Of a stretch of 64,000 nucleotides of DNA, positions 9,596-31,523 are shown piece after piece (the first letter of the stretch is position 1; the number at the start of each line of letters is the position of its first letter). The DNA lies in IMG/VR virus record IMGVR_UViG_3300005805_000064, positions 21,268 through 85,267 of that record, one strand, 5' to 3'. Made by a program: the position numbers and the translations under genes. The notes beneath the pieces were generated by a model. It saw nothing but the letters and a program-made list of their open reading frames with translations. It ran no database searches and had not been told where the DNA came from. This stretch comes from a virus. Its lineage: Duplodnaviria > Caudoviricetes.

Positions 9596-10777
9596 TTATT
9601 CACCTTTTTTAATTAACTTCTCGTCTACAGTTTTTGTCACATACAACTTATCTATGGCTGAGATAGATCCACAAGTTTCTACGCAATACAATAGTCTTCC
9701 CTCTTCTACTGTTTTTGCTTTCCAACCATCTAGAAAGAAAGGACCAAAATAAGGACCCATCAATATTTCATATATAGAGTTTTTTCTCAGATCAAGTTTA
9801 TCTTTGCCCATCTCTTGCACTTTTTTATTGAACTGCCAACGACTATAGGTGCTACTAAATTGCCCGAACACTCCACCTAAGAAACAACATGGCAGCAAAT
9901 GTCCAGTAGCCGACACATATATTTCCTGTACATATTGATCTAATGATTTGCAGCGAATGCCGGAACTCTTTGCTAAATTTCTACTAAATTCAGTTAACTC
10001 AGGTACCGGTTCTACCATAGCATGTTTAAAATCAATCTTATAATCAGATGGAATATTAGACCTTTCACCTGTAAAGTTTACAGGATATATAGTATAATCA
10101 AAAGTTCCATCTCGTTTATATACATTCATTCCTTGCTGCTTTCCCTGATACTCACCGAACCCCATTGGTCTTTTCTCTGCAAAATGAAACCCTAATTTAG
10201 ACGCTAATTGTCTAGCCTCTTCTACCTGATGTTGATTATGTTCGAATACCAAGAATTCCCATATACCGAAAGCACCTGTTTTGGCATATGCTTCCATGTT
10301 CGCAAATAATCTATCCCACTTAACACCGCGTCTGTATATATGGTTTGTATCTTCTAAACCATCCACACTGAATACTACTGCCGGCTGATAAAATGCATGA
10401 CTTAAGTTTTTCTCTCTAGGAACACTAGCAAAAAATTTTCCTACTTCTGACCAATATTCTGGATTGCGCATACCGCCATTAGTTCGTACTTGTTGTGCGA
10501 TATATTTTTTACTGTTAGATTGAAAATATTCTAATATAGGTATTAAATCTAATGCCATACCTGGATCGCCGACATTACCGCAAAAGTTAATACCTATGAT
10601 ATTTTCTACGAACTTTTTAGGAAAGAAATTTTTTATATCATCTATAGTAAGTTCTGTGATTTCTAGATTAGGACTTACTGGACCTCCTGCAAGATTTCTG
10701 CTACATGCAGGACAACTAGCATTGCATCTTGATGTAAGTTCTATGTGAAGCCTACCTATATTATTAATATTATACAT
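9596..10777 (-). CDS. Radical SAM protein with C-terminal twitch/SPASM-like Cys module
   Basis: CNASCPAC near the N-terminus, CGNVGDP in place of GGEP, TNGG, FSVDG, and C-terminal C...IYVSATGHLLPCC...CVETC. Confidence 0.9.
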   Translation of the reverse strand: MYNINNIGRLHIELTSRCNASCPACSRNLAGGPVSPNLEITELTIDDIKNFFPKKFVENIIGINFCGNVGDPGMALDLIPILEYFQSNSKKYIAQQVRTNGGMRNPEYWSEVGKFFASVPREKNLSHAFYQPAVVFSVDGLEDTNHIYRRGVKWDRLFANMEAYAKTGAFGIWEFLVFEHNQHQVEEARQLASKLGFHFAEKRPMGFGEYQGKQQGMNVYKRDGTFDYTIYPVNFTGERSNIPSDYKIDFKHAMVEPVPELTEFSRNLAKSSGIRCKSLDQYVQEIYVSATGHLLPCCFLGGVFGQFSSTYSRWQFNKKVQEMGKDKLDLRKNSIYEILMGPYFGPFFLDGWKAKTVEEGRLLYCVETCGSISAIDKLYVTKTVDEKLIKKGE

Positions 10778-12026
10778 CAGTTTTTCCTATAATACTTTCC
10801 ATCATGTTGGCGACTTTTTTAAAACGATTTTTCCAATCATCTTTTCTTCTCACATCTAAATCATTTAAAAATTGATAAAGATTATATACCTGCTCTTTAT
10901 TCACTTCACTAGACTGCATCTTTGCTCGGATACCGTATACAGTATCCTGATATGATAACATATTGTTGTCTTTAATAACATCGATAAACTTGTCTAAATC
11001 TTCTAGAAATAAATCTCCGAAATGATAAACATCAAAGCAATTAGGAACCACAACCGTATTCCAATGAAAAGTGATATGCTTGATTTTTTTCCATTCTTTT
11101 ACTTTTTCGGCGAGCAGATAAAAACTAGGCATTGACAAGGCAGTGATAGTCGAATGTATTTGAACCTCAACACCCGCAGTATCTAGCATCGTCAGAATGT
11201 TCTTTTCAGCCCACTCCATATTCAATCCATATCTAACATATTCTAAATCAGGTCCCCAGCAGTCTATGCTGCATACTACCATCATACTTTTTATTTTCTT
11301 CTCATAAATTAATTTTCGCACCTTATCGATTTTTGATTTGAACTTACCGGGCTCATGATTTAAATTGCTAAAAATATGCCAGTTTAATTCTGGACAAGGA
11401 TGCTTGTCAAAAAAATCTAAGCACATGTCAAACTCTTCTTGATAGAAAGGTTCACCACCTAGCATTTTAAACATCACTAATTTACTACCATGTTCTGCCA
11501 TATATTCAAAAAATTTATCTCTATAGGTAGTGTAGTTTTTTCTATCATCGTTTAGCCATTCGCTATAATTTGTATTAAATTTGCTAGGACCATATTTTTT
11601 CACTTCATGTTCGATTTGACTGCTAAATGTAGGTCTACAATATACACAAGATTGGTTGCACAGATTACTGAAATATACTTCAAGTATTGTAGGGGTAACT
11701 TTGATCGCATTGGGATCTGTTTCTAATTCAGGCGGAAGGATAGTAGTGTCTTTGTTTGTAAATGCGGTTCTATCGCTTAACCCACCTGCCATTTCGATGT
11801 CTCTACAATATTCACACCCATTACCAGGCCATTCTCCTTTAAGCATCTTGGCTCTATCTAGCATCTTTCCGGGTAAATTATGAAAGTCTTTAATCGTGTC
11901 GGCATCAAATTTATAGTGTTTGCATCTGTGACAACTGGCTGTTGTACCGGTATTTAAATAGATTGAACTCCATGCCCACTTATACTGACATGCTGCATTG
12001 TTTTGTATAGGAAATATTTTACTCAT
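10770..12026 (-). CDS. Radical SAM protein with N-terminal twitch-like module (subfamily A)
   Basis: CQYKW...SCHRC and CEYC, then CNQSCVYC, LGGEPF and SIDCWG. Confidence 0.9.
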   Translation of the reverse strand: MSKIFPIQNNAACQYKWAWSSIYLNTGTTASCHRCKHYKFDADTIKDFHNLPGKMLDRAKMLKGEWPGNGCEYCRDIEMAGGLSDRTAFTNKDTTILPPELETDPNAIKVTPTILEVYFSNLCNQSCVYCRPTFSSQIEHEVKKYGPSKFNTNYSEWLNDDRKNYTTYRDKFFEYMAEHGSKLVMFKMLGGEPFYQEEFDMCLDFFDKHPCPELNWHIFSNLNHEPGKFKSKIDKVRKLIYEKKIKSMMVVCSIDCWGPDLEYVRYGLNMEWAEKNILTMLDTAGVEVQIHSTITALSMPSFYLLAEKVKEWKKIKHITFHWNTVVVPNCFDVYHFGDLFLEDLDKFIDVIKDNNMLSYQDTVYGIRAKMQSSEVNKEQVYNLYQFLNDLDVRRKDDWKNRFKKVANMMESIIGKTDV

Positions 12027-12778
12027 TTATATTTGTCCATGATAGGTCTGATGATATTTTGATAATACACTTCGTGTCCTTTTTCATTAGTATGATTGTC
12101 TACGCATTTATAAATGTTTTTGTTAGCCCAATCATTATTGGTCCCGCTGTAATCATAACTTTGAATATCTAGAAATTGGTGTTTGATTATGCCGGTATCG
12201 TTTTGCAAATGTTTTATGATATCTGGGTCATACCAATACATAGGCATGGAAAACTCAAAAGAAAATCCTCTAAGTTCACAGTATTGTTTGGCTGCTAGAA
12301 GAGACATCAATCCTATGTTTCTTCCTATCTCATCCTGATATAAATGCATTATATACATCTTTTTAGCCAAAAAATATTGCTCAAGGTGCGGATCCATCTT
12401 TCCCTGCCATGCGGGATCCCAATTATGCGACAATACCCATGAGTGCAGTTCTCCCCTATTTCCTGATGCTTCTAACCTATCAGGACTAGTACCTGCAAAA
12501 AGCACTAGTGTTTTTAATTTAGAATGATTGTCCTTTATTCCGAAATTCATTAAGTCGCGGAACATAGCCGGATTAGAATGCCCGCATCTAGCAAGATTTA
12601 TGACAGGTATGTTATATTCTTTACTTAGCAAACTTGCCCAGCAATATTCACTCGGAAAATTATCAGGAGTTCGTTGTCCTACTACCTGCTTAGTGTCAGG
12701 ATCGATATAAAAAACACGATCTTGGCATCCATGACCATATGTATAACTATCTCCAAAAACTACAATACGCTCTATCAT
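12023..12778 (-). CDS. SGNH hydrolase-like protein
   Basis: VVFGDSYTYGHG, NLARCGHSN and C-terminal DNHTNEKGH. Confidence 0.7.
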   Translation of the reverse strand: MIERIVVFGDSYTYGHGCQDRVFYIDPDTKQVVGQRTPDNFPSEYCWASLLSKEYNIPVINLARCGHSNPAMFRDLMNFGIKDNHSKLKTLVLFAGTSPDRLEASGNRGELHSWVLSHNWDPAWQGKMDPHLEQYFLAKKMYIMHLYQDEIGRNIGLMSLLAAKQYCELRGFSFEFSMPMYWYDPDIIKHLQNDTGIIKHQFLDIQSYDYSGTNNDWANKNIYKCVDNHTNEKGHEVYYQNIIRPIMDKYK

Positions 12779-12779
12779 T

Positions 12780-14033
12780 TTATTTCAAACCTATATATTT
12801 TGCTAAATTATCGGGCTTATTTCTGCGTACAGTATATTGCTCAAAAAAGATATCGCTATCTCTGCGCATCTCGGCTTGATTTTCTCTGATAAACCCTTCA
12901 TCTAAGAACTTGATCAATCTATTGCAATGTTCAAATTCTACGGGCAATAAATCATCTTTGATGCTATCATAGAATTTCTGATATTTATTGATGTAAAAAT
13001 CACGCTCTTGTCTAGTCAAACAAGCGAATCCTTGAAACTCGGGCTTGTCTACCATATTGATAGAGATATATGGTTTGATCTTGGTGCGGCTTCTGATATC
13101 TATGATATCTCTGTACATCTGATCTAGGCTCTGTAATGCTATGGCGCTGACTGTAGTGCTGATGCTAAACTCTTTGACTGTGCTATTACCCAGTCGTTCT
13201 ATATTAGTCAACCATTCACTATAAACCATTCCCTCTCGTATGAATTCAGCCGTTTCACCTGCACTTTCATTACTGATATTCATGCGCAGGTTATTCAAGC
13301 CTTTTATCTTATCAAAGAACCTATCCATGACTACTGGCTTCTGACATAGGTTACTATGTATGACAGTTTCTATGTTAGGATTAACCCTTGTCATCATAGC
13401 GAACAACTTGAATACTTCTTCATGCATCAATGGCTCACCGCCGCTGACACGAATGCTTTCAAGACCTTCCATGACTGTCTCAAACCAACTCCAAAATAGT
13501 TCCATATGTGGAGGCTTGATCATCTCTTCTAGTTCAGCCATATCTTTCTGATAGTGCCTGCGATCATCAGTCTTGATATCAGTATACACACCGTTGACTC
13601 GTATATCATTGATCCAACTTGTGCTAAATTGCGGGCTGCAATAACTACATGCTAGATTACATGTGTTGTTAAACGCTAACTCTAACGCTTTTGGTTTGAA
13701 TATGTAATTTGGATTCTTGTAATCTTCTGCTGTGAGATGATCCTTGAAACTGAGGCTCTTGCGTGTTCTATCGCTAGTCAATCCCAAATTCTCATATCGC
13801 CAGCAACTATCACATGCAGGAGGCTGCTCTCCTGCTAACATGCGCTTTTGTTGCTCACGCTTCTCTGCTGGATTATAGAATGTGTCTACTGTATCACCGA
13901 CTTGGAGGAAGGGAGTATAATGGCAACTAGCGATCTTGCCGCTATAGACCCATATACTTGCTTCATGGAACTTTGCTAGACAAAATGTAGGGCTAGTCTC
14001 ATTCCTAATTTTTATTAACTTATTCAGTTCCAT
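12780..14033 (-). CDS. Radical SAM protein with N-terminal twitch-like module (subfamily A)
   Basis: CLAKF...SCHY and CDSCW, then CNLACSYC and SGGEPL. Confidence 0.9.
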   Translation of the reverse strand: MELNKLIKIRNETSPTFCLAKFHEASIWVYSGKIASCHYTPFLQVGDTVDTFYNPAEKREQQKRMLAGEQPPACDSCWRYENLGLTSDRTRKSLSFKDHLTAEDYKNPNYIFKPKALELAFNNTCNLACSYCSPQFSTSWINDIRVNGVYTDIKTDDRRHYQKDMAELEEMIKPPHMELFWSWFETVMEGLESIRVSGGEPLMHEEVFKLFAMMTRVNPNIETVIHSNLCQKPVVMDRFFDKIKGLNNLRMNISNESAGETAEFIREGMVYSEWLTNIERLGNSTVKEFSISTTVSAIALQSLDQMYRDIIDIRSRTKIKPYISINMVDKPEFQGFACLTRQERDFYINKYQKFYDSIKDDLLPVEFEHCNRLIKFLDEGFIRENQAEMRRDSDIFFEQYTVRRNKPDNLAKYIGLK

Positions 14034-15343
14034 CAGTAGTCAAACTCATCATTTAAATTATTCTTAGTCATGTAATCTTGCATGTTTTTATGCTCAGGGA
14101 AAACAGCAAAGAAGTTTTCTTTTCTAATACTATCTAGTTTTCTGGTAATCCTACTAAAGAACTTCAGACTTTCATGTAAATTTGGTTCTCTGTTGACATC
14201 GCTGTACATAAAATTAATAGCATTTTCATATCTACTTATTGCGCTGGAATGTACGCTGTATCTTTTCAACCATTCGATGTGACTTAAAAACAGTAATTCT
14301 ATCTCACGCTTTTTCCATTCCGGAATGTTTTTCAAGCAGTAATAAGGAGGGGTATCTAATGGGTTGATCATAATATTGTCATGACCTATTAATCCCAATT
14401 CTACCCATTCTTTATGAAAGTCTACGAGGTTGTGGGAGTTCGGCCAACTCAATGTATACGATATATTAAATTGAACATGCGGCACTAATGCTAGCATGGA
14501 CAGTCTATTACTGACCACCGTAGGCCAATCAGTGCCGCTACGCCAGTACTCTCCCCTGCTATGGCTTCCATCAAGGCTAGCGTTGACACTGACATTTTTA
14601 AATTTTTTCCAATATTCGATAACATTATCATAATTCTTTAACTTCAACAAACTAAAGTTAGTGTTATATCTAATCTCAATGTCTGTATTACCTATCTCAA
14701 TCAACTTGTTCAATACTTCATAATGTTCTTTTTGCATCAGTGGTTCACCACCTGCAAAATATATGATCTCAGCCGTGCTTAGATGGGGTATTATTTCTTC
14801 TAATGCTTGTACTTCAGTCGAACCTGGATATTGAAAACCATCATCAATTTCTAGTTTTTCAGTTCGATTATATAACTTTCTGTGGTCGCTGACCCAACTA
14901 GTGCTGTAATGAGGGGCGCAGCTGCGGCACTTCAAGTTGCAAAGGTTGTTGAACCGTACATCAATATAATATAGTTTATGTTCATCTACGGTGCCGTCGC
15001 TCTTAGTGCTAGCCACTATCTCTTGTATAGCAGGATTCTCTTCAAAAAATCTTTTATTGTAAGAATTATAAAAAGCGTCCCCTAATTCAGCGCGGTTATT
15101 ACAAATACTACAGTTAGGATGTTGTTCACCTTTTAAAAATTGTAATCTCAAAGTTTTAGTATTCTCGTTATTCCATATCTCTTTCAATGTGTTTTGTTTT
15201 AGACTACCTAGTTCTGCTTTCCAATCGTATACACAACAAGGTTTTACATCTCCCGGCGGACCTACATATTGATGAACCCATGGAAATATACAAAAAGTTT
15301 TGCTGGATTTTGCCATTTCTAAAGGATTAAAATTATTTTCCAT
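14033..15343 (-). CDS. Radical SAM protein with N-terminal twitch-like module (subfamily B)
   Basis: CIFPW...GDVKPCC and CSIC, then CNLKCRSC, AGGEPL, YNTN and SLDG. Confidence 0.9.
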   Translation of the reverse strand: MENNFNPLEMAKSSKTFCIFPWVHQYVGPPGDVKPCCVYDWKAELGSLKQNTLKEIWNNENTKTLRLQFLKGEQHPNCSICNNRAELGDAFYNSYNKRFFEENPAIQEIVASTKSDGTVDEHKLYYIDVRFNNLCNLKCRSCAPHYSTSWVSDHRKLYNRTEKLEIDDGFQYPGSTEVQALEEIIPHLSTAEIIYFAGGEPLMQKEHYEVLNKLIEIGNTDIEIRYNTNFSLLKLKNYDNVIEYWKKFKNVSVNASLDGSHSRGEYWRSGTDWPTVVSNRLSMLALVPHVQFNISYTLSWPNSHNLVDFHKEWVELGLIGHDNIMINPLDTPPYYCLKNIPEWKKREIELLFLSHIEWLKRYSVHSSAISRYENAINFMYSDVNREPNLHESLKFFSRITRKLDSIRKENFFAVFPEHKNMQDYMTKNNLNDEFDY

Positions 15344-16628
15344 ACTTTATTAAATCCACATATAATTCGGGAAATATCTGCATGAAACTTTCATTTCTCA
15401 ATAGATCAAGTTGCGTTGTCTTTTCAAAAAATCTAGGTATCATATGACTTTCATCTGCACTGTTCATCAAAGTAATCGCACTTTGCCAATGTTCCATATA
15501 TACCGGATAATCAAAATTTCTAGGTTGTGTCTTTTCAAGCCATTCGATGTGATTTTTAATCTTTTCTGTAACTCGTTTTTTAGTCTCTGATGGTAATACG
15601 GTAGTTCTTATATACTCAGGAAAATGCAACACATTAAGATTAAATCCAAATGTATCTCCTGTATGCTTTTTAAATAAATCATTCTCGCAAATATATCTAT
15701 GTAGGTCTATAGCAGCCTCACAGTTTAACAAACTATATACCGCACTGATGCCAAAATCTATGGTAGGTATGTATTCTTTACAAGTCTTTATCCAATCTAA
15801 TGCTAATTGCCAATCAAATCCTTTTCTAATATATTCACCTTTAGCACCCATAGCGTCTATGCTACCTATTATAAAAACATTTTCAAAATGTTTTAGTAGT
15901 TCAAACGCATTATAGTTTTTTAACTTGTATGTGCTTAGGTTAGTATTATATCTGATTTTTACTTTTGTTTGCCCCATCTCTATCAAAAGTTTTAAGAATT
16001 CATAATGCTCTTCTTGCATCATAGGTTCTCCACCACTGAAATGTATTTCAGTGTATGGATCTACCATGCCTACTAAATTAACTAAATCATCTTTCATATG
16101 TGCGATTTGATCATTGGTGATCAATGTAGGCACTGGATTTCCTAATTTAATCGCATCAGCCGCCCAACTAGTGCTAAGTCCTGGACCACAACTACGACAC
16201 TTAAAATTACAAAGATTGTTAAAGATTAGGTCTATCGTGGCTAATTTTATGTCACCTACACTACCGTCTGGTAAAGTAGTACTATGTATATCTTCAAATT
16301 TATTATGGTATTTTTGATTTGTATAGTCAGGCCAGTGCTGATACCTTTCATTAAACCGTTGACGCATACTAACTATACCGCTATCCTCTTCTTTCCAACA
16401 ACGAAAACATGCGCTAGGTCTTTTACCTTCTAAAAATTGTTTTCTAAGATCATTCCATTTTTCGTTATGAAAAATATTTTTAAGTTTATCTTCTTTCCAA
16501 TTACCTAATTTATGAGGAGTCTGATGGCTATAATAGCAACAAGGCATCACTTTACCATCTGGTTCAGTGTGTATCTGCAACCACGGCACACTACAAAAAT
16601 TTTTAGGATATTGATTATCTTGATTCAT
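15333..16628 (-). CDS. Radical SAM protein with N-terminal twitch-like module (subfamily B)
   Basis: CSVPW...DGKVMPCC and CFRCW, then CNFKCRSC, SGGEPM and SIDA. Confidence 0.9.
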   Translation of the reverse strand: MNQDNQYPKNFCSVPWLQIHTEPDGKVMPCCYYSHQTPHKLGNWKEDKLKNIFHNEKWNDLRKQFLEGKRPSACFRCWKEEDSGIVSMRQRFNERYQHWPDYTNQKYHNKFEDIHSTTLPDGSVGDIKLATIDLIFNNLCNFKCRSCGPGLSTSWAADAIKLGNPVPTLITNDQIAHMKDDLVNLVGMVDPYTEIHFSGGEPMMQEEHYEFLKLLIEMGQTKVKIRYNTNLSTYKLKNYNAFELLKHFENVFIIGSIDAMGAKGEYIRKGFDWQLALDWIKTCKEYIPTIDFGISAVYSLLNCEAAIDLHRYICENDLFKKHTGDTFGFNLNVLHFPEYIRTTVLPSETKKRVTEKIKNHIEWLEKTQPRNFDYPVYMEHWQSAITLMNSADESHMIPRFFEKTTQLDLLRNESFMQIFPELYVDLIKYGK

Positions 16629-17722
16629 ATTAATTTTATAATCTCGGTCAATACTTTTTCATGATTAGTATTTCTAGTTTGATCTATAGCAGTAAATAAT
16701 TTCTGTGCGAGGGGAAACAATTCGGACTTATCTTCTCCGGTCATTAACTGCGTCTTGAATTTGTCTTGTATCTCTAAAAATTTAGGATCATTAGTAGGCA
16801 ATATATTATCAAACACTCGCTTTAAAATGATTTGCTTACTCTTCAACGGAATTACATCTACGCTTTGTTCTTCTGGATAAACTAATTTATTCATATGTAC
16901 GCTGTCTAGATTTGGATATGAAGTATATATCCAGTTATACCAATCTGCAAACCACAATGCATTCATCCATGTAAGAGCATATTGAAAGTTAATCTTAAAT
17001 CTATGATCTTGTAGTTGGTAGTAGCGGTCTATATTATCCTTGACTTCTGCCCATTTACCATTAGATCGGATGTATTCAAATATATCATCCGTGCCGTCTA
17101 TACTGAATCCTAATCCAACAAATCTAAATATCCTCGAATACTCTTGCAATTTAGGTTTATACATAGTACCATTAGTAAGCATTGAAATCGCAGTAGTACT
17201 AGCATAAGGTTGTTCAGATAACCAATCTAAAAATTCAAATATCAAAGGATTGATTAGTGGTTCCCCACCTAATATATTAATATTAATATATGGATAAGTG
17301 TTTTGTTTCAGTGCTGTTTTTATAAATTCTAATTTACTAGGTCCCTGTTCACTTATAATTCTGTATAATTTTTGAGAGTTTTTACTTTCATTAGCGATTT
17401 GAGTGCTATATCTAGGACTACAGTAAGTACATCTTAAATTACATAGATTATCAAAAGATACAGTTATTCTTAGTTCGTCATCTCGTATAGTGTCTTCTGC
17501 TTCTTTTCTTTGGCTGAATGGATTACCATTTTTTTCAAGATCGATGCAGTACTTGCAATTTGTTTCAATATCCATTTTAGATAATTGATCATAATATTCG
17601 TCTACAGTAGTAGCATCAATATTAGTTTTAAAATAGCAACAGGGGCGGTAGGGCTTTTCATCATTGCTAATGAAAAGCCACTGCTTGTGTGCCTTGCAAT
17701 TTTTATATGGGGTTAAATCCAT
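16625..17722 (-). CDS. Radical SAM protein with short N-terminal Cys module (subfamily B-like)
   Basis: CKAH...RPCC and CKYC, then CNLRCTYC, LGGEPL, TNGT and SIDG. Confidence 0.9.
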   Translation of the reverse strand: MDLTPYKNCKAHKQWLFISNDEKPYRPCCYFKTNIDATTVDEYYDQLSKMDIETNCKYCIDLEKNGNPFSQRKEAEDTIRDDELRITVSFDNLCNLRCTYCSPRYSTQIANESKNSQKLYRIISEQGPSKLEFIKTALKQNTYPYININILGGEPLINPLIFEFLDWLSEQPYASTTAISMLTNGTMYKPKLQEYSRIFRFVGLGFSIDGTDDIFEYIRSNGKWAEVKDNIDRYYQLQDHRFKINFQYALTWMNALWFADWYNWIYTSYPNLDSVHMNKLVYPEEQSVDVIPLKSKQIILKRVFDNILPTNDPKFLEIQDKFKTQLMTGEDKSELFPLAQKLFTAIDQTRNTNHEKVLTEIIKLI

Positions 17723-19002
17723 CCATTAAGTTCCTTGAATACTTCACTAAAATTTCGTTCTCTACGCTTATCGTATTCTGTTGTGAATTTTCTAAACTGG
17801 TCTGTGCGCCAATCTCTTTCTACATCATTCATAGTAGTCTTGCGAGCCTTCCAGAAATCATAGACCATAGCCCATGTCTCTTTTTCTACGCTCTTGATGA
17901 GACTATCATTTTCTTTCATGAAGTTATTTGTATCTTCAAAATAACTATCGGCACTATCAGGTAATATGCGCAAATCAAACTGCTTAGGATCGACTAGCCG
18001 TGCGCAGTTGAACATGATGTCGATACCATCTTTTCTAAACTCAATGACCTTCTTGATGAATGTCTTAAAGTTGAACACACTCAACAATCCAAATGTGACC
18101 ATGATTCTGATAGGTACATGGAATGTAGTGCTGACTTTGCGAACAGTATCTTCCCACTGTGCTACATCAAGCCCGTCGCGGATATACTCTGCTTGTGGAC
18201 CCCATGTATCCATGCTAGTATATACTTCAAGACCTTTGATAGTCTTAGCATTCAACAATGTCGTTGCCTTCTCAAAGAACATCTTTAAGTTCTTTTCAGG
18301 TACACACAAGTTAGTGTTGATCACTAGTGTTAAGTTAGGGTTATGGTTCTGTGCTACGAAATCAAGCAACTTCATGAAGTTGCGTGTGGCAAGTGGTTCG
18401 CCACCTGTGATTCTAAGATAGCGCAAATCTTTATACGCATCAGGTAACCACTTCCAGAATGCATCGATATAAGGGTTATCATCTTCTGGTAGCATGTCGT
18501 GCATCTTGTCTTTATGCACAGTCGGGTCTTCGATAGGATAACTACCGAACTTGCGTACTTCATGCTCCCATCGTGAACTCTGTCCCGGGCTGCAATAACT
18601 GCAAGCAAAGTTACAAGTGTTTGCGAAACTGATCTCTAAGTAACTAGGATTGATAGGCTTGTCATATGGCGCGTTGAGTATCTCTGCTCTGCGCTCAATA
18701 GCCCATGGTTCGTTGGTGAATCGTTTTCTATCGCTGATGACATCAGGATTGATCGCTTCCATGTCAAAGCAATAATAACATTCTTTTGGCTTCTCGCCGT
18801 TCAACATCTGTCTACGCTGTTCGATCTTATGACCAGTGTTGTGTAGTGCTGAAGGATCTTTGTCAGTCTCTTCACGCTTCCAACGATGTATGGGTGGGTG
18901 ATAGCAACTATGGTTCTCACCCATGCCAAAATGCATAGTGACCATTAGCCACTTTGCTGCACAAAAACTATCTTTAATCTTGATTGGAATCTCTACACTC
19001 AT
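17713..19002 (-). CDS. Radical SAM protein with N-terminal twitch-like module (subfamily A)
   Basis: CAAKW...SCYHPP and CYYC, then CNFACSYC and TGGEPL. Confidence 0.9.
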   Translation of the reverse strand: MSVEIPIKIKDSFCAAKWLMVTMHFGMGENHSCYHPPIHRWKREETDKDPSALHNTGHKIEQRRQMLNGEKPKECYYCFDMEAINPDVISDRKRFTNEPWAIERRAEILNAPYDKPINPSYLEISFANTCNFACSYCSPGQSSRWEHEVRKFGSYPIEDPTVHKDKMHDMLPEDDNPYIDAFWKWLPDAYKDLRYLRITGGEPLATRNFMKLLDFVAQNHNPNLTLVINTNLCVPEKNLKMFFEKATTLLNAKTIKGLEVYTSMDTWGPQAEYIRDGLDVAQWEDTVRKVSTTFHVPIRIMVTFGLLSVFNFKTFIKKVIEFRKDGIDIMFNCARLVDPKQFDLRILPDSADSYFEDTNNFMKENDSLIKSVEKETWAMVYDFWKARKTTMNDVERDWRTDQFRKFTTEYDKRRERNFSEVFKELNGWI

Positions 19003-20177
19003 AATATTTCACCTAATTCTGGTATGTAATCTTTATAACTTAAGTTTCTTGCTTTGTCTACTGCGTTGATAAACTGGCTTGCTTTCGTTAATAGTTTAGG
19101 ATCATGCTCGACCTGCAACTTAGCATACAATTCATTACGCTGCCAGTCATGTAATTTATCAACATAATAATCCTTGACTTTCTGTTTGTAACTCTCTGGT
19201 AATGCAGCGAGGCTCAGATAGTCTGGATACAATACATAATTGTGATGCGGAATCTTGTTGTAATTTTTCTCTAACCAAGTATTTAATGTATCCAATGTCA
19301 GTATGTTTAATATGCTCACAGTCTGTGTGACATGCCAATATACATTGCTTACTTTGTTTAATTTCTCAATGCTAGTAACTGTCTCATCCCACTGTGTAGG
19401 ATATCTGATATAATAGTTTCTAATATCATAATCGTCTATACTTGCGTTGACTGTTACCTTCATGAATGACTTCCACAATTCTATCAGATTGTCAGGAATA
19501 TCCATCATGTTTAGGCTATATACAAGATGCACTTTTTTGCTTGTGCCGTTATTGATTAGATTTTCTAAGTAGCGATAATGTGCTTTGATCAATGTTGGCT
19601 CGCCACCATTGATATAAATCTCTTCTACGCCTTCGCTATATTTCGTCAACTCGTCATAGAACTCAGGATCTTCGAACCATTTAAAGTTCTCTACAGGTCT
19701 AAGTTTGAACCAGGGTAGTTCTCGGGCTATCTTCTTTTCATCTGGATACCACTTACTGCTGCTGTAACTATTGCAAGTCAAACAGGCATTATTACATACA
19801 TTGCCTAATCTTAATTCAATATAACGATAATTAGGACGCTTGATGTATGCTGTCTTTTCTAATTCTTCTATGATATGTGCCCAACGCTCATTCTCATATT
19901 GTCTTTTACTTTTTAAACCTTTATCTTCATCGCTCCAGCATCCTTCACATTCTACTGGGCGTTTGCCATCTATCATGGCTTGACGCACTTCTATAAACTT
20001 CTTGCTATTGATGATATCATTTAAACTGCTATCATCTAATAGTGCGAGGCTTTCAGTATTGTCTTTCTTTGCCCAACTGATAGCGTTATTGTGGTTGCTG
20101 CGGCAGCACAGGCTACACCCACCGTTTGGGTGGGTAGCAAGATGCATCCAAGGCAATACACATAATGTATTAGACAT
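18999..20177 (-). CDS. Radical SAM protein with N-terminal twitch-like module (subfamily B). Probable start is MSNTLC at 20177 (track start 20210).
   Basis: CVLPW...SLCC and CEGCW, then CNNACLTC, NGGEPT and SIDD. The 20177 start gives a short 8-nt overlap with the upstream SDR. Confidence 0.88.
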   Translation of the reverse strand: MSNTLCVLPWMHLATHPNGGCSLCCRSNHNNAISWAKKDNTESLALLDDSSLNDIINSKKFIEVRQAMIDGKRPVECEGCWSDEDKGLKSKRQYENERWAHIIEELEKTAYIKRPNYRYIELRLGNVCNNACLTCNSYSSSKWYPDEKKIARELPWFKLRPVENFKWFEDPEFYDELTKYSEGVEEIYINGGEPTLIKAHYRYLENLINNGTSKKVHLVYSLNMMDIPDNLIELWKSFMKVTVNASIDDYDIRNYYIRYPTQWDETVTSIEKLNKVSNVYWHVTQTVSILNILTLDTLNTWLEKNYNKIPHHNYVLYPDYLSLAALPESYKQKVKDYYVDKLHDWQRNELYAKLQVEHDPKLLTKASQFINAVDKARNLSYKDYIPELGEIL

Positions 20178-20853
20178 ATTTGATTGATATCTCAGAAGGC
20201 GGATTTTCAAATCCTTTTAATTGCGCTACGATTTTCCCATTGAATTTATCATCATGATTAATAATGTGATCATATAGGTTAGTTAAAGCCTGACCATATA
20301 ATACGGGATCATTATAGATAAAAAATGGACATACTGCGCTAAAGGTGACTTTTTTAGTTCTTGACCTTGCCATGCTAGTCATTAAATGTGTAGCAAATGA
20401 TTTTCCTGCAGGATATCCCACACCTGCACCAAAATGATTTCTTTCATATTCAAAGGCCATACTTGAACTCATGAATACTACCTTGCTGCCTTCTGTCAGA
20501 TTGTTATATAATACTGAAATTATTAAATGCGGTAGTATGACATGAGCAGTCATAGTTTGACTATATCTACTGACTACAGGCTCCGAAAACAATTGATCTA
20601 CTGTGTCCGGGTATCCAGCACCGTTTTGGTTAAATAAAATCAAGTCTATACTAGGCATATCTATTGTAATTTGTTGAACAATAGATTTAGTATTTTCAGT
20701 GTTATTATAATCTATAACCCTGTCATCAGTATTTCCGGTATTATGATCACGGTGTGATAATACAATCACACGATGTCCGTTTGCTCTGGCTTTTTTAACA
20801 AAATCGTTTCCGAATTTTCCCGGGGTGCCGCCACCTAAAACAACTATATTCAT
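20170..20853 (-). CDS. Short-chain dehydrogenase/reductase (Rossmann fold)-like protein
   Basis: N-terminal IVVLGGGTPGKFG, LILFNQNGAG (NAG-like), VVFMSS and YPAGKS (YxxxK). Confidence 0.7.
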   Translation of the reverse strand: MNIVVLGGGTPGKFGNDFVKKARANGHRVIVLSHRDHNTGNTDDRVIDYNNTENTKSIVQQITIDMPSIDLILFNQNGAGYPDTVDQLFSEPVVSRYSQTMTAHVILPHLIISVLYNNLTEGSKVVFMSSSMAFEYERNHFGAGVGYPAGKSFATHLMTSMARSRTKKVTFSAVCPFFIYNDPVLYGQALTNLYDHIINHDDKFNGKIVAQLKGFENPPSEISIKYV

Positions 20854-22247
20854 ATATTATCCCACCATTGTAGTAATTTTGCATTTCTGCTATAGATATC
20901 ACGCAATGTCAACTTAGCATCGCGGATTTGTTCTAATCTGTGTACCCATCCTTTACCATTCTTTGCTGCTTGCCTGAATGTATCGGGCCATTCTTCTTCG
21001 TGCGTCTTTCTAGTGTTCTTCAATGCTTCTAAGTTTGCGATCAATGTGCCATGACGCCATTCGTCTGCTCTAGGTCTGATATATTCAAGTATATCGTCAC
21101 ATACTTCATTCAATACTTCTCTAGGCCAACTAGTCGGGCTCCACATGATATCAGGATGGAATGCGAATGTGATCTTTGTCTCAATCTTGACACCTAGTTC
21201 ATTGCTCAAATCAAACAAGTCTTTTAGTGAGAACATGCCCGGTGCTGTGATAGTCAAATCAAGAACCATCTTTTGTCTTCCGCCGGGTAATTCACATCCA
21301 CGCTTGAAATTCTCAAGCCATTTATCCCACTTGATACCTGTGCGTATATACTCAACGATATCACCAGTGCCGTCGATGCTTGCGCACATCATCCAGTCTT
21401 TGAAGTGCGGTAGATAATCATATAGATTCTTAGTTCCAAATTGAACACGGCTCAAGTTACTGTTATATCTTAGATAGCAATTCTTTGCGCTACCATTGCG
21501 TAGCATCTCTTCTAATGTCCACCAATGCACATCGTACATCAATGGCTCACCACCTACCCAATACATTTCTTCAACTATGCCGCGACTGACAGCATCACGG
21601 AACTCTGGTTCTACTACTTCTGTCTGAAACTTCTCCATAGCATTCTTGATTTCTGGTACCATGAATGGTTGATGCTTAGGAGTCCACATATTGTGAATCT
21701 TCTTTTCAGTTTCCCATGTTGAACTTAATTGCTCACCACACATGCGGCACTTGAAATTGCATAGATTGCTGAAACGATAATCGAATGATATAGGTTCCAT
21801 AGTAGTGTAGCCTGTGTCATCTGTCTTATCAAATGCTTCTTGTATCTTATGTTTGAACAATGTGCCTGTGAACCAACCACGATAACTATGACCTTCCATC
21901 AATAGATTCTTATTGCATACATCACACTGTGGAATCTCTTCTCCGCGCATGAGTTTGACACGGATATCACGCATGTATTCACTGTTCCAATGTTCTTTTA
22001 ATGACAATGGTTTATACTTATCTACGGATGTCTCGCTATCCTTTGTCTTGCCATAGCGTTCATCATTGCTGCTGTCGATATATTGTTTTTGGAAACTATG
22101 TTCTTCTCTGCTTGCGCAACATAGTCTGCGTTCGCTTTGAGGGCTTATATAGGTATGCGTCCATGGAGCCATGCAAAAGACTTTATTTTGACTGTCTTTT
22201 GCAGGCTTCGCATCATCTCCCCATATAGGAATTATTTTGTTGTCCAT
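20850..22247 (-). CDS. Radical SAM protein with N-terminal twitch-like module (subfamily B)
   Basis: CMAPW...RRLCC and CDVC, then CNFKCRMC, VGGEPL and SIDG. Confidence 0.9.
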   Translation of the reverse strand: MDNKIIPIWGDDAKPAKDSQNKVFCMAPWTHTYISPQSERRLCCASREEHSFQKQYIDSSNDERYGKTKDSETSVDKYKPLSLKEHWNSEYMRDIRVKLMRGEEIPQCDVCNKNLLMEGHSYRGWFTGTLFKHKIQEAFDKTDDTGYTTMEPISFDYRFSNLCNFKCRMCGEQLSSTWETEKKIHNMWTPKHQPFMVPEIKNAMEKFQTEVVEPEFRDAVSRGIVEEMYWVGGEPLMYDVHWWTLEEMLRNGSAKNCYLRYNSNLSRVQFGTKNLYDYLPHFKDWMMCASIDGTGDIVEYIRTGIKWDKWLENFKRGCELPGGRQKMVLDLTITAPGMFSLKDLFDLSNELGVKIETKITFAFHPDIMWSPTSWPREVLNEVCDDILEYIRPRADEWRHGTLIANLEALKNTRKTHEEEWPDTFRQAAKNGKGWVHRLEQIRDAKLTLRDIYSRNAKLLQWWDNI

Positions 22248-22972
22248 TGTAGTTCTCGTAGTTTAGGTAATACTAAATGATTTACTATAGATTGGTGCCC
22301 TTCAATAGTAGGATGAGTAGTCTGATCGTACTGATTAATATCTAACACATATTGATCTATACCATATGCTTTGCCATTTCTTTTATATGCGACAATTTCA
22401 CAGTTAATAGGAAATTCTGAAAAATCAATGTCGTCAGCAGTAGCATTATTATGCAACCCCAGCAAAAACAGAAATTTGTTATTACCTGTTTTAAATGCTT
22501 CTGATAGCAAGTTCGTTTGAAAAGATAAAAATCTAGCATTATCTTGCCAAGAGGTATTTACCTCATGAGGCCATATATCTGCAATCCATCGATAGTGTGT
22601 CTTAAAACCTGACAAAACATATTTTCTTCCATATATCTCATGAGTTTTTAACGGCATATCTTCGGTTGATTCTAGATACTTGAATAGATCGTATGCTTTA
22701 AAAAAATCATAACCGTGCGTCCCGGAAGTAATATCCAAATCTTCTCTTCTTATATGGGTAGATTGAAATATTATCAGACAATTTTCAAAAGTTATTTTTT
22801 CATAAGCCCAAATAGCATAAAAATTGTTTAGTATAGTTTTATTAGATGCCCCGGGAACAGTGAACTTCACTAATGATTTGCCTAACAAATTAGATAGGTA
22901 ATCAGCCCAACTCAATTTGTAGTCAGTAAAACTATCACCTATCGCAACAATAGTGTCTCTAATCAATCTCAT
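22232..22972 (-). CDS. SGNH hydrolase-like protein
   Basis: VAIGDSFT, VPGASN and C-terminal DQTTHPTIEGH. Confidence 0.7.
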   Translation of the reverse strand: MRLIRDTIVAIGDSFTDYKLSWADYLSNLLGKSLVKFTVPGASNKTILNNFYAIWAYEKITFENCLIIFQSTHIRREDLDITSGTHGYDFFKAYDLFKYLESTEDMPLKTHEIYGRKYVLSGFKTHYRWIADIWPHEVNTSWQDNARFLSFQTNLLSEAFKTGNNKFLFLLGLHNNATADDIDFSEFPINCEIVAYKRNGKAYGIDQYVLDINQYDQTTHPTIEGHQSIVNHLVLPKLRELQWTTK

Positions 22973-24195
22973 AAATTAATACCTGAATTTGAATATAGAC
23001 TTAAATCCGTACTGTACATCTCTTTATAATTTTTACCCCAGTTATCTTTATTATATCCATATTGCGACATTAAATCTGCCCATTCCGGAAAAACATCTAG
23101 GAAAGATTCGCGCCGCCTGATATCAAATTTCATCAAATGATTTATTGCTATAGGCATGAGATTAGTCCAATCTTTACTGAACATATAATTAATCATACCA
23201 TCGACATCACCTTTATCATGCCACACTCTAGTTTTCATTTCTTGCAAATATTTCGCTGCCTTTTCTTTTTCATGTTGTGGTAATACATGCAGCGTATATT
23301 CTTTAGAATACACTACCGTATTATTGTACATTCCTTTAGGATCTATCGCATATAATTCTTCTAACAAATCACCCCATTTATATAATATGGGCCAAGCAAT
23401 AGTAGTGATGTAAGTTCTTTTTATAGGTAAATCGGCATCTCTGACTAATTTAATATTCTGTATAATGTCATTCCAATCAGTACCGTAGCGCCAATAACCA
23501 TGACCGGGGCCCGCAGCATCGACACTCATTCTAAAATCTATTTCATCAAAATGTTTCCATTTATCAAAAATATGTTGACCTTTAAAAGTCAACTGACTTA
23601 CATTAGAATAATAATTTAATTTAGGTTTGTATCCATTCTTAATAAAGAAATCAAGCAACTCCCAATGTTGCCAATGCAATAATGGTTCGCCGCCGCTAAA
23701 TGTTATTCTTCGTATTGTGTGAGCATGTTTTTTAACTTGATCTAAAACAAAACCCTCATATGGACCCGGTGTTCTGTGTACTTCATATGTATGATTATCT
23801 TTTTCTTCATACATCTTGTTTTCATGTGCTATTCGTGAACTTACATGATCGTAGCAAATTCTGCACTTTGAGTTACACAAATTAGAAAATCTAACCTCTA
23901 CATGATGTATTTCATCTTTATAATATACATCCTCTTCAAAATGATTTACTTTGTCTTTGCGTTCACTGCCTAAACCCATATCTTCAAGATAATAACAGGC
24001 ATTGCAGCGGCTAGGACGCTCATCTCTTAGATGTTGCTCTCTTAATTCTTTTAAGAAAGGGTCGGCACGGTATTCATCTATAGTGATGGTGTCTTTATTT
24101 GTTGTTATGAAAGGACATATACCTACGGTTCCTGCCATAGAATAATGTATTGCCCCGAAAGGCATAGGGCAACGATTTTTATATTCTGTAGTCAT
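22969..24195 (-). CDS. Radical SAM protein with N-terminal twitch-like module (subfamily B-like)
   Basis: CPMPF...GICP and CNACY, then CNSKCRIC, SGGEPL and SVDA. Confidence 0.9.
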   Translation of the reverse strand: MTTEYKNRCPMPFGAIHYSMAGTVGICPFITTNKDTITIDEYRADPFLKELREQHLRDERPSRCNACYYLEDMGLGSERKDKVNHFEEDVYYKDEIHHVEVRFSNLCNSKCRICYDHVSSRIAHENKMYEEKDNHTYEVHRTPGPYEGFVLDQVKKHAHTIRRITFSGGEPLLHWQHWELLDFFIKNGYKPKLNYYSNVSQLTFKGQHIFDKWKHFDEIDFRMSVDAAGPGHGYWRYGTDWNDIIQNIKLVRDADLPIKRTYITTIAWPILYKWGDLLEELYAIDPKGMYNNTVVYSKEYTLHVLPQHEKEKAAKYLQEMKTRVWHDKGDVDGMINYMFSKDWTNLMPIAINHLMKFDIRRRESFLDVFPEWADLMSQYGYNKDNWGKNYKEMYSTDLSLYSNSGINL

Positions 24196-25724
24196 TATAG
24201 ATCAGGATTTACGAACACTTCCTTGCTAGGATCTTCAGGTGGATGTTCTGGTACTAAGTCCATTCCTTCACGATAATTACCTGTTATGATCTCTGCGCTA
24301 GTAGGTACTTCAGTGTCGATGCTATCAAACCAGGCTACGAATTCTTCTGGGAAAGTCTCACGGAAGTTCTTAGCACGGCGCACATCATACTGACTATAGA
24401 ATTGCTTGAAGTCACGCTTGTTCTGCTCAGGGTCCTTGACATTCTTGTGTGGAGTCTTGATGACGTCAAGATAATCGATCAAACGCTGAGTCTGCTCACG
24501 CTCAATAGCAGTCAATAATGGTTCACCGTTACTAGTCTTCTCATTCAAGTGTATATAATGGTTCAACCACTTCTGCAACTTGTCGCTATACTTCTGACGA
24601 ATATCCATTGGCAACATCGCGCAACTCTGGAAACTTGGGAAACGCAAGATATTCAAACTCATTGTTGGATATGTTGAGTCGTGCTTGCGCTTGAAGTTCA
24701 TGATCTCTGTCATGAATTCTGTGATGCTTGACAAGCACAAACTATTGATAGTCATCATGATATGTGTGCGCTTGACATTACCTTCAGTATGCAATCTTTC
24801 AAGATTGCGCAACCATATATCCCAATTAAATCCATCACGGATGTATTCAGCATGTTTACCTACTGCTTCACAACTTGTATACACTTCAAGCCATGGCACA
24901 TAGTGACTCAATTCTATGAAACGATCCATGATATCATCTTTAGGTACGAGGTTGCTATTGATAGCATAACGCATGACCTTACCGTCTGGGCGATTCTTTA
25001 CACGCTCTTGGTTAGCCTTGAACCATTCGAATAGTTTCCATACACCTGCAGCCATTAATGGCTCACCGCCTGTGATACGAATCTCTTCAAGGTTATCAGC
25101 GAGGCCGTTCTCTTGTTCCCACCAGCGCCAGAACGCTTGTGTGTATGGGTTAACTTCATCCGGCAATGGCTTTGCGTGATCTGCCTTGTTGATGAAGTGA
25201 CTACGGGCATCACCGTTGATGTTACGATATGGACCAAACTTGACGATATCCTTTACCCATGTAGTGCTAAAACTTGGGTTGCAATATGAACATGCGAAAT
25301 TACAAGTTCTGTCGAATGCGATCTCAAGTGTACGCAACATAGTGTTTTCTTGCCAGTCTGCTTTAGCAGTCTGTGCGATATACTCTTCCTGGTGTACGGC
25401 AGTCTTGTATACACGGTCTGAGATAGAACCGCGACCCAAGTCTTCGATCTTCCAGCAATACTCACATTCTTGAGGACGAGTGCCTTCCTGCATCATCTTA
25501 CGCATCAATTTCTTATGCGGGGTGTTGTGAATAGCAGTTGGATTATCTTTTAATTCGTTAGCATCGATCTGGTGTCCCAATGGGTGGTGACAACTTGCTG
25601 TCTGGCCGTTACCCAACCAAATAGTAGCATTTAGCCACTTGGCTGCACAATAACTGTCACTAACGATGTCGATGACTCGTTTCTTATAATCTGCGTATGT
25701 TTCGTCTGGTCTTTTTCCTGCCAT
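24195..25724 (-). CDS. Radical SAM protein with N-terminal twitch-like module (subfamily A)
   Basis: CAAKW...SCHHP and CEYCW, then CNFACSYC and TGGEPL. GAGGA Shine-Dalgarno upstream. Confidence 0.9.
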   Translation of the reverse strand: MAGKRPDETYADYKKRVIDIVSDSYCAAKWLNATIWLGNGQTASCHHPLGHQIDANELKDNPTAIHNTPHKKLMRKMMQEGTRPQECEYCWKIEDLGRGSISDRVYKTAVHQEEYIAQTAKADWQENTMLRTLEIAFDRTCNFACSYCNPSFSTTWVKDIVKFGPYRNINGDARSHFINKADHAKPLPDEVNPYTQAFWRWWEQENGLADNLEEIRITGGEPLMAAGVWKLFEWFKANQERVKNRPDGKVMRYAINSNLVPKDDIMDRFIELSHYVPWLEVYTSCEAVGKHAEYIRDGFNWDIWLRNLERLHTEGNVKRTHIMMTINSLCLSSITEFMTEIMNFKRKHDSTYPTMSLNILRFPSFQSCAMLPMDIRQKYSDKLQKWLNHYIHLNEKTSNGEPLLTAIEREQTQRLIDYLDVIKTPHKNVKDPEQNKRDFKQFYSQYDVRRAKNFRETFPEEFVAWFDSIDTEVPTSAEIITGNYREGMDLVPEHPPEDPSKEVFVNPDL

Positions 25725-25731
25725 ATATTCC

Positions 25732-27297
25732 TCAATTTTGTGTATATTCTTTCACGCACTCTTTCCAGTAATTCTTAAACTCCGGGAAGGTGAGTAGGAA
25801 ATTAGTGCCCCGTCTTTTATCGAACTCTTTAATGAAAAGATAGAAATTCTTCTTATTTATTGACTTTTGATTTTGGGGCAAAGATTCCTTCATCACAGCC
25901 AAATCTCGCTTGACTTTGAGTATCTCGTAGGGCTTGAAACCCTCGAATGTCTCTAAGTAGTCATCTCCCTGCACATTGTCTTCCATGAACTTCAAACAAC
26001 GCTCTACTTCTTGTATCTCTTTCTCGGTAGCATTAGTCACGCTGAACCAAGGCGGGAAACGCAAGATAGGAATGTCAAAGAACACACGCTGGAACTTTTT
26101 CTGCGTGTAGACTTTGTGAACGATACCATGCTTCTTTTCTTCTTCCGTTTGCTCAGGACTGATAGTGAACTCAGTCTGCGCACGACCGCCGAACTCACGG
26201 CGTAGTTCCAATATCATCTCAAGGAACTTGTGTAAACTAGGTATGCTCAACAAGTTAAAGGTATTGATGAAACTCACAGTAGTGTACTTTGTCTCACGCA
26301 AGAAGGTTCTGATGTTGTTCAACATCCTATCATATTCTAGACCTGTGCGCATATACTCTGCTTGAGGGCCCACTCCGTCTAGTGACACGAATAGCCAGAA
26401 ATGCTTGAAACCTTTATCTACATACCAATGATTACCGCTGAACTCATTGAAGTTTTCCTTGTCTTCATATGTGCGCAACTCTTCGATAGCCTTGACTTTT
26501 TCTAGGAACTTATCAAATAGTTTCTGATCGGGTGGGCACATGTTGCTGGTTATGCTCAACTCAAGTTGTCCATGAGGATTCTTGTTGACATAATCAAGCA
26601 CTTTGAATGTGTTCTTGTCCATTAATGGCTCGCCACCTGTCATACGGAACACACGCAACTTTCTATAGATAGTGGGCCACCATTTCCAGAAAGCCTCTAC
26701 ATAAGGATTTTCTTTCTGTGCTACTCTTATGGGCATCAAGCCCTTTTGCTCTAATGATGGTAGATCATTGTGAACATAATTGTCTAACACGAATCCGCCA
26801 TACTTTCGTACTTCTTCTTCCCATGTCGTTGACAAGTGTGGGCTGCAATACATGCATTTGAAATTACATGCTTGATTGAAATTGACTTCTACATATCGGG
26901 GAGTCACATCATAGTCCCAAGGATTACCCGTGACTTCATCGAATGTAGGTGCGTTCCACCATTCGCTACTACGATAGTGACGATCACTTAGATGTCCTTT
27001 AGGATCATCGCTCTGCGCATCTTCTACACGCCAGCAATATGCACAGCCTTCGGGTCTTTTACCCTCAAGCATCATCTTGCGTTCGGCAATCTTTTGTGGT
27101 GTGTTGTGTAATGCGCTTGGTTGCTTTTCTAATAATTCTACAGGTATCTTATGTGTAGGTGGATGATAGCAACTCTGTGTGAGTCCTTGCGGCAAGTGCA
27201 AACTCACTTGCTGCCATTTTGCTAGGCATAAAGAAGGACTGACCGCATTTAAGCGGTCTCGCATGTCCCTAGCAAATTGATCGTATTCGCCTGACAT
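25732..27297 (-). CDS. Radical SAM protein with N-terminal twitch-like module (subfamily A)
   Basis: CLAKW...SCYHPP and CAYCW, then CNFKCMYC, TGGEPL and SLDG. Confidence 0.9.
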   Translation of the reverse strand: MSGEYDQFARDMRDRLNAVSPSLCLAKWQQVSLHLPQGLTQSCYHPPTHKIPVELLEKQPSALHNTPQKIAERKMMLEGKRPEGCAYCWRVEDAQSDDPKGHLSDRHYRSSEWWNAPTFDEVTGNPWDYDVTPRYVEVNFNQACNFKCMYCSPHLSTTWEEEVRKYGGFVLDNYVHNDLPSLEQKGLMPIRVAQKENPYVEAFWKWWPTIYRKLRVFRMTGGEPLMDKNTFKVLDYVNKNPHGQLELSITSNMCPPDQKLFDKFLEKVKAIEELRTYEDKENFNEFSGNHWYVDKGFKHFWLFVSLDGVGPQAEYMRTGLEYDRMLNNIRTFLRETKYTTVSFINTFNLLSIPSLHKFLEMILELRREFGGRAQTEFTISPEQTEEEKKHGIVHKVYTQKKFQRVFFDIPILRFPPWFSVTNATEKEIQEVERCLKFMEDNVQGDDYLETFEGFKPYEILKVKRDLAVMKESLPQNQKSINKKNFYLFIKEFDKRRGTNFLLTFPEFKNYWKECVKEYTQN

Positions 27298-30497: not shown

Positions 30498-30515
30498 ATA
30501 AACTCCTCTTCCGAG

Positions 30516-31494: not shown

Positions 31495-31523
31495 GTTTTA
31501 AAATTCCTATCAATCTATAGTTT

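Follow-up and report, generated by a model that had tools for sequence, protein, structure and literature searches.

Twelve radical S-adenosylmethionine (SAM) superfamily genes have been described before in a T4-like virus: a marine environmental genome reported by Nishimura et al. in 2017 (PMC5332604), in which these genes were mentioned in relation to Fe-S cluster supply. The 64,000-nucleotide stretch analyzed here (the window; positions 21,268 to 85,267 of IMG/VR record IMGVR_UViG_3300005805_000064) also comes from a phage, one with T4-type baseplate genes, and also carries twelve such genes, arranged in one array, whereas PMC5332604 gives no family, layout, or function for its set. Eleven of the twelve window genes belong to NCBIfam family NF033640 (N_Twi_rSAM, “twitch domain-containing radical SAM protein”), in which a four-Cys twitch domain stands before the radical SAM core. 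Our literature searches found no paper characterizing any NF033640 member, and the published work on “twitch domain-containing radical SAM” proteins appears to concern other enzymes. The full IMG/VR record around the window is 85,267 bp long, with a CheckV completeness of 22%. Its phage identity follows from T4-type baseplate genes, with baseplate wedge, hub, and virion proteins assigned by PHROGs at 52 to 64 kb; the 1127-aa wedge protein shares about 33% identity with its counterparts in 340- to 490-kb jumbo myophages such as Munch, 7t3, Atu_ph07, and Phosso. Several studies (2016 to 2025) have yielded lake and freshwater metagenomes with near-identical DNA, consistent with a freshwater origin of this uncultured giant phage. 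A search of the 85-kb record for an Fe-S scaffold gene (PF01521) gave no match, a result that is uninformative because the record is itself only 22% complete.

As judged from their sequences, the twelve genes are old, individually conserved radical SAM enzymes, and eleven of them have a permuted domain layout. The original prediction, made from the letters of the DNA, had listed twelve open reading frames (ORFs) with CxxxCxxC, most of them also carrying GGEP; by ORF listing and motif scan, all of the quoted motifs were located in 12 adjacent minus-strand ORFs spanning 9596 to 27297, and GGEP is present in 11 of these, R1 alone being without it. The genes are named R1 (9596 to 10777) to R12 (25732 to 27297) and are given here in the order of reading, together with the superclade (A or B) that they occupy in the tree described below:

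25732 to 27297, minus strand: R12, N_Twi_rSAM enzyme, clade A, core orthogroup
24195 to 25724, minus strand: R11, N_Twi_rSAM enzyme, clade A, core orthogroup
22969 to 24195, minus strand: R10, N_Twi_rSAM enzyme, clade B, in a variable cassette with SGNHb
20850 to 22247, minus strand: R9, N_Twi_rSAM enzyme, clade B, core orthogroup
18999 to 20210, minus strand: R8, N_Twi_rSAM enzyme, clade B
17713 to 19002, minus strand: R7, N_Twi_rSAM enzyme, clade A
16625 to 17722, minus strand: R6, N_Twi_rSAM enzyme, variable member (174 to 176 bits; cut-off, 170)
15333 to 16628, minus strand: R5, N_Twi_rSAM enzyme, clade B
14033 to 15343, minus strand: R4, N_Twi_rSAM enzyme, clade B, core orthogroup, used for the structural model
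12780 to 14033, minus strand: R3, N_Twi_rSAM enzyme, clade A
10770 to 12026, minus strand: R2, N_Twi_rSAM enzyme, clade A
9596 to 10777, minus strand: R1, radical SAM enzyme of the usual domain order, outside NF033640

Pfam Radical_SAM (PF04055) matches all twelve proteins, nine of them above the gathering score of 29.5 bits (R1, R2, and R12 fall below it), and the 85-kb record contains no further radical SAM match. R2 to R12 match NF033640 end to end (model positions about 1 to 398) with 174 to 362 bits against a cut-off of 170, and their E values of 1e-53 to 1e-109 are far beyond chance. R1 reaches 28 to 31 bits over the core part of the model (positions 108 to 268) and is a nonmember; it has the usual order, with CxxxCxxC at residue 18 and a Cys-rich twitch/SPASM-like region at the C terminus. 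In an alignment of the eleven members (R4 numbering), the twitch residues C18, C78, and C81 are invariant and C37 is nearly so, and further invariants are C135-N-x2-C139-x2-C142, GGEP, N229, S256, R268, and R407. Pfam SPASM matches are placed at residues 12 to 112 in five copies, ahead of the radical SAM core. The domain conserves four Cys, not the seven of a SPASM domain with two auxiliary clusters, which suggests a single-cluster twitch domain rather than a full SPASM domain. Residues 13 to 81 of a profile built from the eleven paralogs align to the twitch domain of BtrN (E = 5.6e-5) and, because they lie ahead of the core, the layout appears to be a permutation of the BtrN order. The extra Cys residues that had been ascribed to an auxiliary cluster are therefore real, four of them being conserved, but their position N-terminal to the core in 11 of the 12 proteins had been missed. 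The enzymes look intact, and SAM cleavage is predicted for them. Clustering with a single well-characterized family, such as MoaA or QueE, had been named beforehand as evidence against distinct functions; the eleven do share a single family, but NF033640 carries no functional assignment, and the best equivalog scores are 50 bits for MoaA (cut-off, 284), 23 for QueE (260), and 41 for viperin (180).

Pairwise identity among the twelve proteins is 21 to 36%. We compared the array with 51 phage loci, which were fetched with R4 or a close homolog and of which 49 come from IMG/VR. In close relatives (loci L001 to L009 and L050), R12, R11, R9, R8, R7, R5, R4, R3, and R1 are found in the same order at 62 to 85% identity, and phage contigs at a greater distance retain R12, R11, R9, and R4 at 40 to 50% identity. 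In a quick maximum-likelihood tree, the window copies that have orthologs in the sampled loci pair with those orthologs (Shimodaira-Hasegawa-like approximate likelihood ratio support of 98 to 100), and the family splits into two superclades, A (R2, R3, R7, R11, and R12; R6 lies close to it) and B (R4, R5, R8, R9, and R10). Recent duplication of the copies is ruled out by their low mutual identity, the conservation of their orthologs, and the tree. With intact motifs and a conserved ortholog for each paralog in related phages, the proposal that the copies serve distinct steps and are not decaying duplicates has held up. R6 is variable, as are R10 and SGNHb. Lake-metagenome contigs (three runs, two studies) join position 22232 to 24202, skipping exactly SGNHb and R10, and one such contig joins 20179 to 20875, skipping the gene for a short-chain dehydrogenase/reductase (SDR); these joints come from mapping metagenome contigs at 85% likeness and may belong to related phages. 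They suggest gain and loss of cassettes (SGNHb with R10; SDR) at gene boundaries among co-occurring relatives. The GC content of conserved-orthogroup genes is 39 to 44%, and that of variable genes is 31 to 36%.

Across the 51 loci, the number of tandem N_Twi_rSAM members ranges from 1 to 12. A count of paralogs per related phage record, which the original prediction had proposed as a check, gave 4 to 17 NF033640 matches, 3 to 15 of them above the cut-off, in five records:

G001, 352 kb, CheckV completeness 100%: 16 matches, 13 above the cut-off
G004, 174 kb, CheckV completeness 50%: 17 matches, 15 above the cut-off
G003, 338 kb, CheckV completeness 97%: 10 matches, 8 above the cut-off
G002, 361 kb with terminal repeats, CheckV completeness 100%: 5 matches, 4 above the cut-off
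G005, 244 kb, CheckV completeness 71%: 4 matches, 3 above the cut-off

Twelve copies are thus typical, not exceptional, for this phage group, and arrays of 2 to 15 copies are present in many IMG/VR contigs. At E ≤ 1e-30 the eleven-paralog profile retrieves 7,647 clusters (50% identity) among 1.84 billion representatives, and the three Atlas clusters nearest to R4 are 93 to 100% viral. In cellular genomes the family gene is mostly single copy and occurs in Bacteroidota, Bdellovibrionota, and Alphaproteobacteria. A megablast search of the array against cultured phages gave no match, and a protein search gave only matches of less than 28% identity, in KVP40-like Vibrio phages and RsoM2USA, with neighbors all annotated as hypothetical. 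Four metagenome proteins (P0122, P0126, P0140, and P0146) contain two or three N_Twi_rSAM units in a chain of 800 to 1400 aa; these may be true fusions or read-through gene calls.

The array sits within a roughly 30-kb gap-free gene block, in which 25 ORFs run from position 30497 to position 2 with gaps of no more than 13 nt and, in most cases, overlaps. Besides the radical SAM genes, the block contains three GT-A-fold glycosyltransferase (GT)-like genes, four SGNH-like genes, the SDR, a carbamoyltransferase with a 33-aa peptide, and a giant repeat protein:

30192 to 30497, minus strand: g101, ORF of 101 aa without family, first gene of the block
29383 to 30195, minus strand: g270, GT8-like (glycogenin-like) glycosyltransferase, by joint profile
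28583 to 29386, minus strand: g267, GT8-like glycosyltransferase, by joint profile
28240 to 28596, minus strand: g118, small ORF without family
27297 to 28250, minus strand: g317, GT-A-fold glycosyltransferase-like protein, by model and motif; its stop overlaps the start of R12
22232 to 22972, minus strand: SGNHb, SGNH/GDSL-like, by GDS motif and a weak Pfam match below cut-off
20170 to 20853, minus strand: SDR (PF00106, E = 1e-7, above cut-off)
12023 to 12778, minus strand: SGNHa, SGNH/GDSL-like
9493 to 9594, minus strand: 33-aa basic peptide ending in KKRDPFIY, partner of the carbamoyltransferase
8605 to 9486, minus strand: g293, SGNH-like, by motif only
7127 to 8641, minus strand: carbamoyltransferase, NodU/CmcH/TobZ type (PF16861, E = 8e-50; PF02543, E = 6e-36)
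6483 to 7130, minus strand: g215, SGNH-like, by motif only
2 to 6469, minus strand: giant repeat protein of more than 2156 aa, running off the window, with 19 P[YF]IY-centered repeats of about 67 aa

The joint profile of g267 and g270 matches GT8 glycogenin (E = 2e-7), with an invariant Asp at the DxD-like position. The model of g317 (predicted local distance difference test score [pLDDT] of 84) carries an invariant D-x-D-N (D66, D68, and N69), and matches GT2-type structures; its Foldseek matches are BcsA, WrtF, and PBCV-1 A64R (probability, 0.97 to 1.0; template modeling [TM] score, about 0.3). All three proteins thus show the GT-A fold or DxD hallmark, and GT activity is predicted for them. 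Genes for g317, g267, g270, and the carbamoyltransferase recur around the arrays in many of the 51 loci, and the SDR is missing from some relatives; about 29 of the 51 have g317 upstream of the array, and in at least 4 it directly adjoins an R12-type gene. Natural fusions also involve the family: in P0153 a g317-like domain is joined to an R12-type radical SAM enzyme, mirroring the gene order of g317 followed by R12, P0176 combines an R11-type enzyme with a GT2 domain, and P0241 combines a GNAT domain with an R12-type enzyme. A complex prediction for R12 with g317 scored 0.00 and counts neither way. Among 109 genes neighboring bacterial homologs, mostly on large contigs, the commonest families are GT2 (6 genes) and GT1, GDSL, TPR, and PhyH (4 each), and the homolog of Nereida ignava adjoins GT90 and GT2 genes.

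The pattern [GT]ATAAATA, which resembles the T4 late promoter, has six copies in the window, every one intergenic and on the minus (coding) strand:

30515 to 30523, minus strand: late-promoter-like motif TATAAATAC, 19 nt upstream of g101, the first gene of the block
31523 to 31531, minus strand: [GT]ATAAATA site
32497 to 32505, minus strand: [GT]ATAAATA site
33275 to 33283, minus strand: [GT]ATAAATA site
55556 to 55564, minus strand: [GT]ATAAATA site
63922 to 63930, minus strand: [GT]ATAAATA site

The copy at 30515 to 30523 is the only one between 30523 and position 1, so that none lies within the block. The same motif precedes the baseplate and fiber genes and stands at the equivalent place in several relatives, and a broader form of the pattern is depleted in the window (8 matches versus 22 expected). 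It is probably the late promoter of this phage, and the gap-free packing behind a single heading motif suggests that the block is read as one late transcript. Sigma-70 promoter and terminator scans of the DNA did no better than on shuffled sequence. The surroundings of the block include g316 (31527 to 32477, minus strand), two genes upstream of the block and after g315, with a Peptidase_G2 intramolecular-chaperone autocleavage domain typical of tail fibers and spikes, and a single 6288-aa ORF (33286 to 52152, minus strand) between the fiber-like genes and the baseplate wedge gene.

The GT neighbors in the phage, the fusions to GT and GNAT domains, and the prevalence of GT genes beside bacterial homologs lead us to read the array, at about an even chance, as machinery for the radical tailoring of a phage-built glycan, a product of late infection that is probably destined for a virion component. 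One promoter would drive late transcription of everything from g101 (30497) through the giant repeat protein, alongside the baseplate and fiber genes, and the three GT-A-fold transferases would assemble a sugar structure. Each radical SAM enzyme would then cleave SAM reductively and abstract the hydrogen of one particular sugar C-H bond, with the fully Cys-ligated auxiliary cluster acting as an electron sink or relay; the outcome could be oxidation, epimerization, deoxygenation, decarboxylation, or C-C coupling, as BtrN, DesII, AprD4, and BlsE perform on sugars. The addition or removal of acyl, keto, or carbamoyl groups may fall to the SDR, the SGNH-like proteins, and possibly the carbamoyltransferase, and the product would probably end up on a virion component. 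Several points weigh against glycan tailoring. Because no NF033640 member has a known substrate, the link to sugars is drawn entirely from neighborhood and fusions; several bacterial homologs lie in unrelated neighborhoods (for instance, in Reichenbachiella), the block has no identified gene for nucleotide-sugar synthesis, the fold matches of g317 are at a low TM score of about 0.3, the late timing is taken from the motif only, and the record represents only about 22% of the genome. In addition, the fold of the enzymes does not discriminate between substrates. The model of R4 (mean pLDDT of 74) has an extra C-terminal helical region of about 100 aa, and a fold search places it in the SPASM/twitch branch, where sugar/nucleotide and peptide enzymes (BlsE, MoaA, CteB, SkfB, SuiB, anSME, DesII, and EpeE) tie at Z scores of 10.3 to 11.4; the fold therefore does not tell a sugar substrate from a peptide.

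This tie bears on a different explanation, that the radical SAM enzymes work directly on a protein of the phage, with the aromatic-rich giant repeat protein as the most obvious target, and install cross-links, epimerized residues, or oxidized side chains in the manner of the SPASM/twitch maturases of ribosomally synthesized and posttranslationally modified peptides (RiPPs). We consider it unlikely, although the peptide-modifying CteB, SkfB, SuiB, anSME, and EpeE share the tie with sugar enzymes, most characterized SPASM/twitch enzymes act on peptides or proteins, and the best PDB sequence match is the RiPP enzyme TigE (E = 7e-14, core only). The giant protein offers 19 near-identical copies of a motif (repeat consensus FD[FY]SW.PDP..PPYIY.FG), followed by GT-A-like modules related to g317; homologs of 1436 to 1649 aa exist in four of the five related records, and the gene adjoins the array in G001, G002, and G004 and lies about 20 kb from it in G005. 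However, the copy numbers of enzymes and repeat protein do not scale together: G003 (97% complete), with its 10 NF033640 matches (8 above cut-off), gave a single weak one-repeat match, whereas G002 encodes a 1649-aa repeat protein with only 4 to 5 radical SAM genes. The domains fused to family members are of the GT-A, GT2, and GNAT types and none is peptide-binding, and a Pfam profile search found no PqqD or RiPP recognition element (RRE) match at E ≤ 0.01 in any of the 12 enzymes. The repeat unit itself resembles a piece of the g317-type GT-A module and may thus have a structural or enzymatic role instead of serving as a substrate motif.

The gene for the 33-aa basic peptide comes immediately after R1, the last of the radical SAM genes. 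The peptide is encoded in 21 of the 51 phage loci and in two contigs binned as bacterial metagenome-assembled genomes, its copies differ by 2204 synonymous versus 1691 nonsynonymous codon changes, and Shine-Dalgarno-like sequences lie upstream; by these coding signatures, the ORF is a real conserved gene. Its position, its conservation, and its aromatic ending DPFIY(K), which is like that of MftA, would suit a precursor of the PqqA/MftA kind, processed by the radical SAM enzymes into a cofactor or small molecule. When IMG/VR was scanned with the back-translated peptide motif alone, at least 120 loci were recovered (in 110 the motif ends a small ORF), and a carbamoyltransferase homolog is present in 92 of the 120 but any N_Twi_rSAM gene in only 30, which argues that the peptide belongs with the carbamoyltransferase rather than with the array. 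The C terminus of the peptide is nearly invariant while the radical SAM set ranges from 0 to more than 12, and L026 to L029 and L045 carry arrays without the peptide in their 10-kb flanks. The precursor explanation is accordingly highly improbable, and the peptide as a radical SAM substrate is largely refuted by the co-occurrence counts. The link of the peptide to the carbamoyltransferase removes the most obvious RiPP-type reading; no precursor peptide that travels with the enzymes was found, the only small conserved ORF being the one that co-occurs with the carbamoyltransferase. As an observation in its own right, the 33- to 34-aa basic peptide ending in (K/R)KRDPFIY(K) and the NodU/TobZ-type carbamoyltransferase form a widespread two-gene module.

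The carbamoyltransferase, which adjoins the array in all five related records checked, introduces a last explanation. A described phage carbamoyltransferase that shares its Pfam type turns 5-hydroxymethyldeoxycytidine into 5-carbamoyloxymethyl-dC on DNA and deoxynucleoside triphosphates (PMC8670742), and by analogy the block could place a sugar-containing, carbamoylated group on phage bases or nucleotides and so allow escape from host nucleases. A thymidylate synthase homolog lies 11 to 36 kb from the array in all five records, and the partner peptide is so basic that it could bind nucleic acid. Radical SAM enzymes, moreover, reportedly occur in known thymidine hypermodification clusters. We nevertheless judge such DNA hypermodification to be quite improbable. 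In the record containing the window, the only thymidylate synthase homolog (L252; 7015 to 7863 of G000:C1, minus strand) is encoded about 13 kb ahead of the start of the window, at a distance of about 20 kb from the carbamoyltransferase gene, and shows the canonical ThyA motifs PPCH and PFNIASY. Asn at its position in PFNIASY confers dUMP specificity, whereas dCMP hydroxymethylases have Asp. The block also lies inside the fiber/baseplate module and behind the same late-type motif as the structural genes, whereas an enzyme that acts on nucleotides ahead of replication is normally produced earlier.

Glycan tailoring, our preferred reading, can be taken further. The eleven permuted-twitch enzymes might each carry out a different radical C-H functionalization on one glycan built by the phage transferases on a virion protein, possibly at the tyrosine-rich repeats of the giant protein, although in this specific form the proposal is rather doubtful. 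If it were true, the virion would have a heavily radical-edited glycoprotein coat without known counterpart, and the gain and loss of single-enzyme cassettes would diversify that coat among co-occurring strains. The array may in this way point to virion or surface glycan editing of a kind new to phage biology. NF033640 is a very large family, mostly viral in the vicinity of R4, for which no characterized member was found; 5 to 15 separately conserved copies beside GTs probably constitute a set of distinct radical reactions on one scaffold and would be useful for enzyme discovery, with the GT-domain fusions supplying concrete enzyme pairs.

Among known systems, the window enzymes resemble BtrN, the 2-deoxy-scyllo-inosamine dehydrogenase and founding twitch enzyme, which likewise has a four-Cys domain for a single auxiliary cluster and acts on a sugar-like substrate. 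In BtrN, however, the twitch domain follows the core, whereas in the window enzymes it precedes it; overall identity is very low, the window enzymes have their additional C-terminal helical region, and the likeness would not imply dehydrogenase chemistry. BlsE (the top fold match, with a Z score of 11.4), DesII (10.3), and AprD4 (8.4) provide a model for radical editing of sugars, but they are tied with peptide-modifying enzymes, and their NCBIfam equivalog scores are far below cut-off. On the side of the transferases, PBCV-1 A64R is a chlorella virus GT-A enzyme that glycosylates the major capsid protein; the PBCV-1 system is without radical SAM enzymes and the TM score of the match is low, but A64R is matched by the g317 model, and the GT genes of the window, too, lie in a structural module that is probably late.

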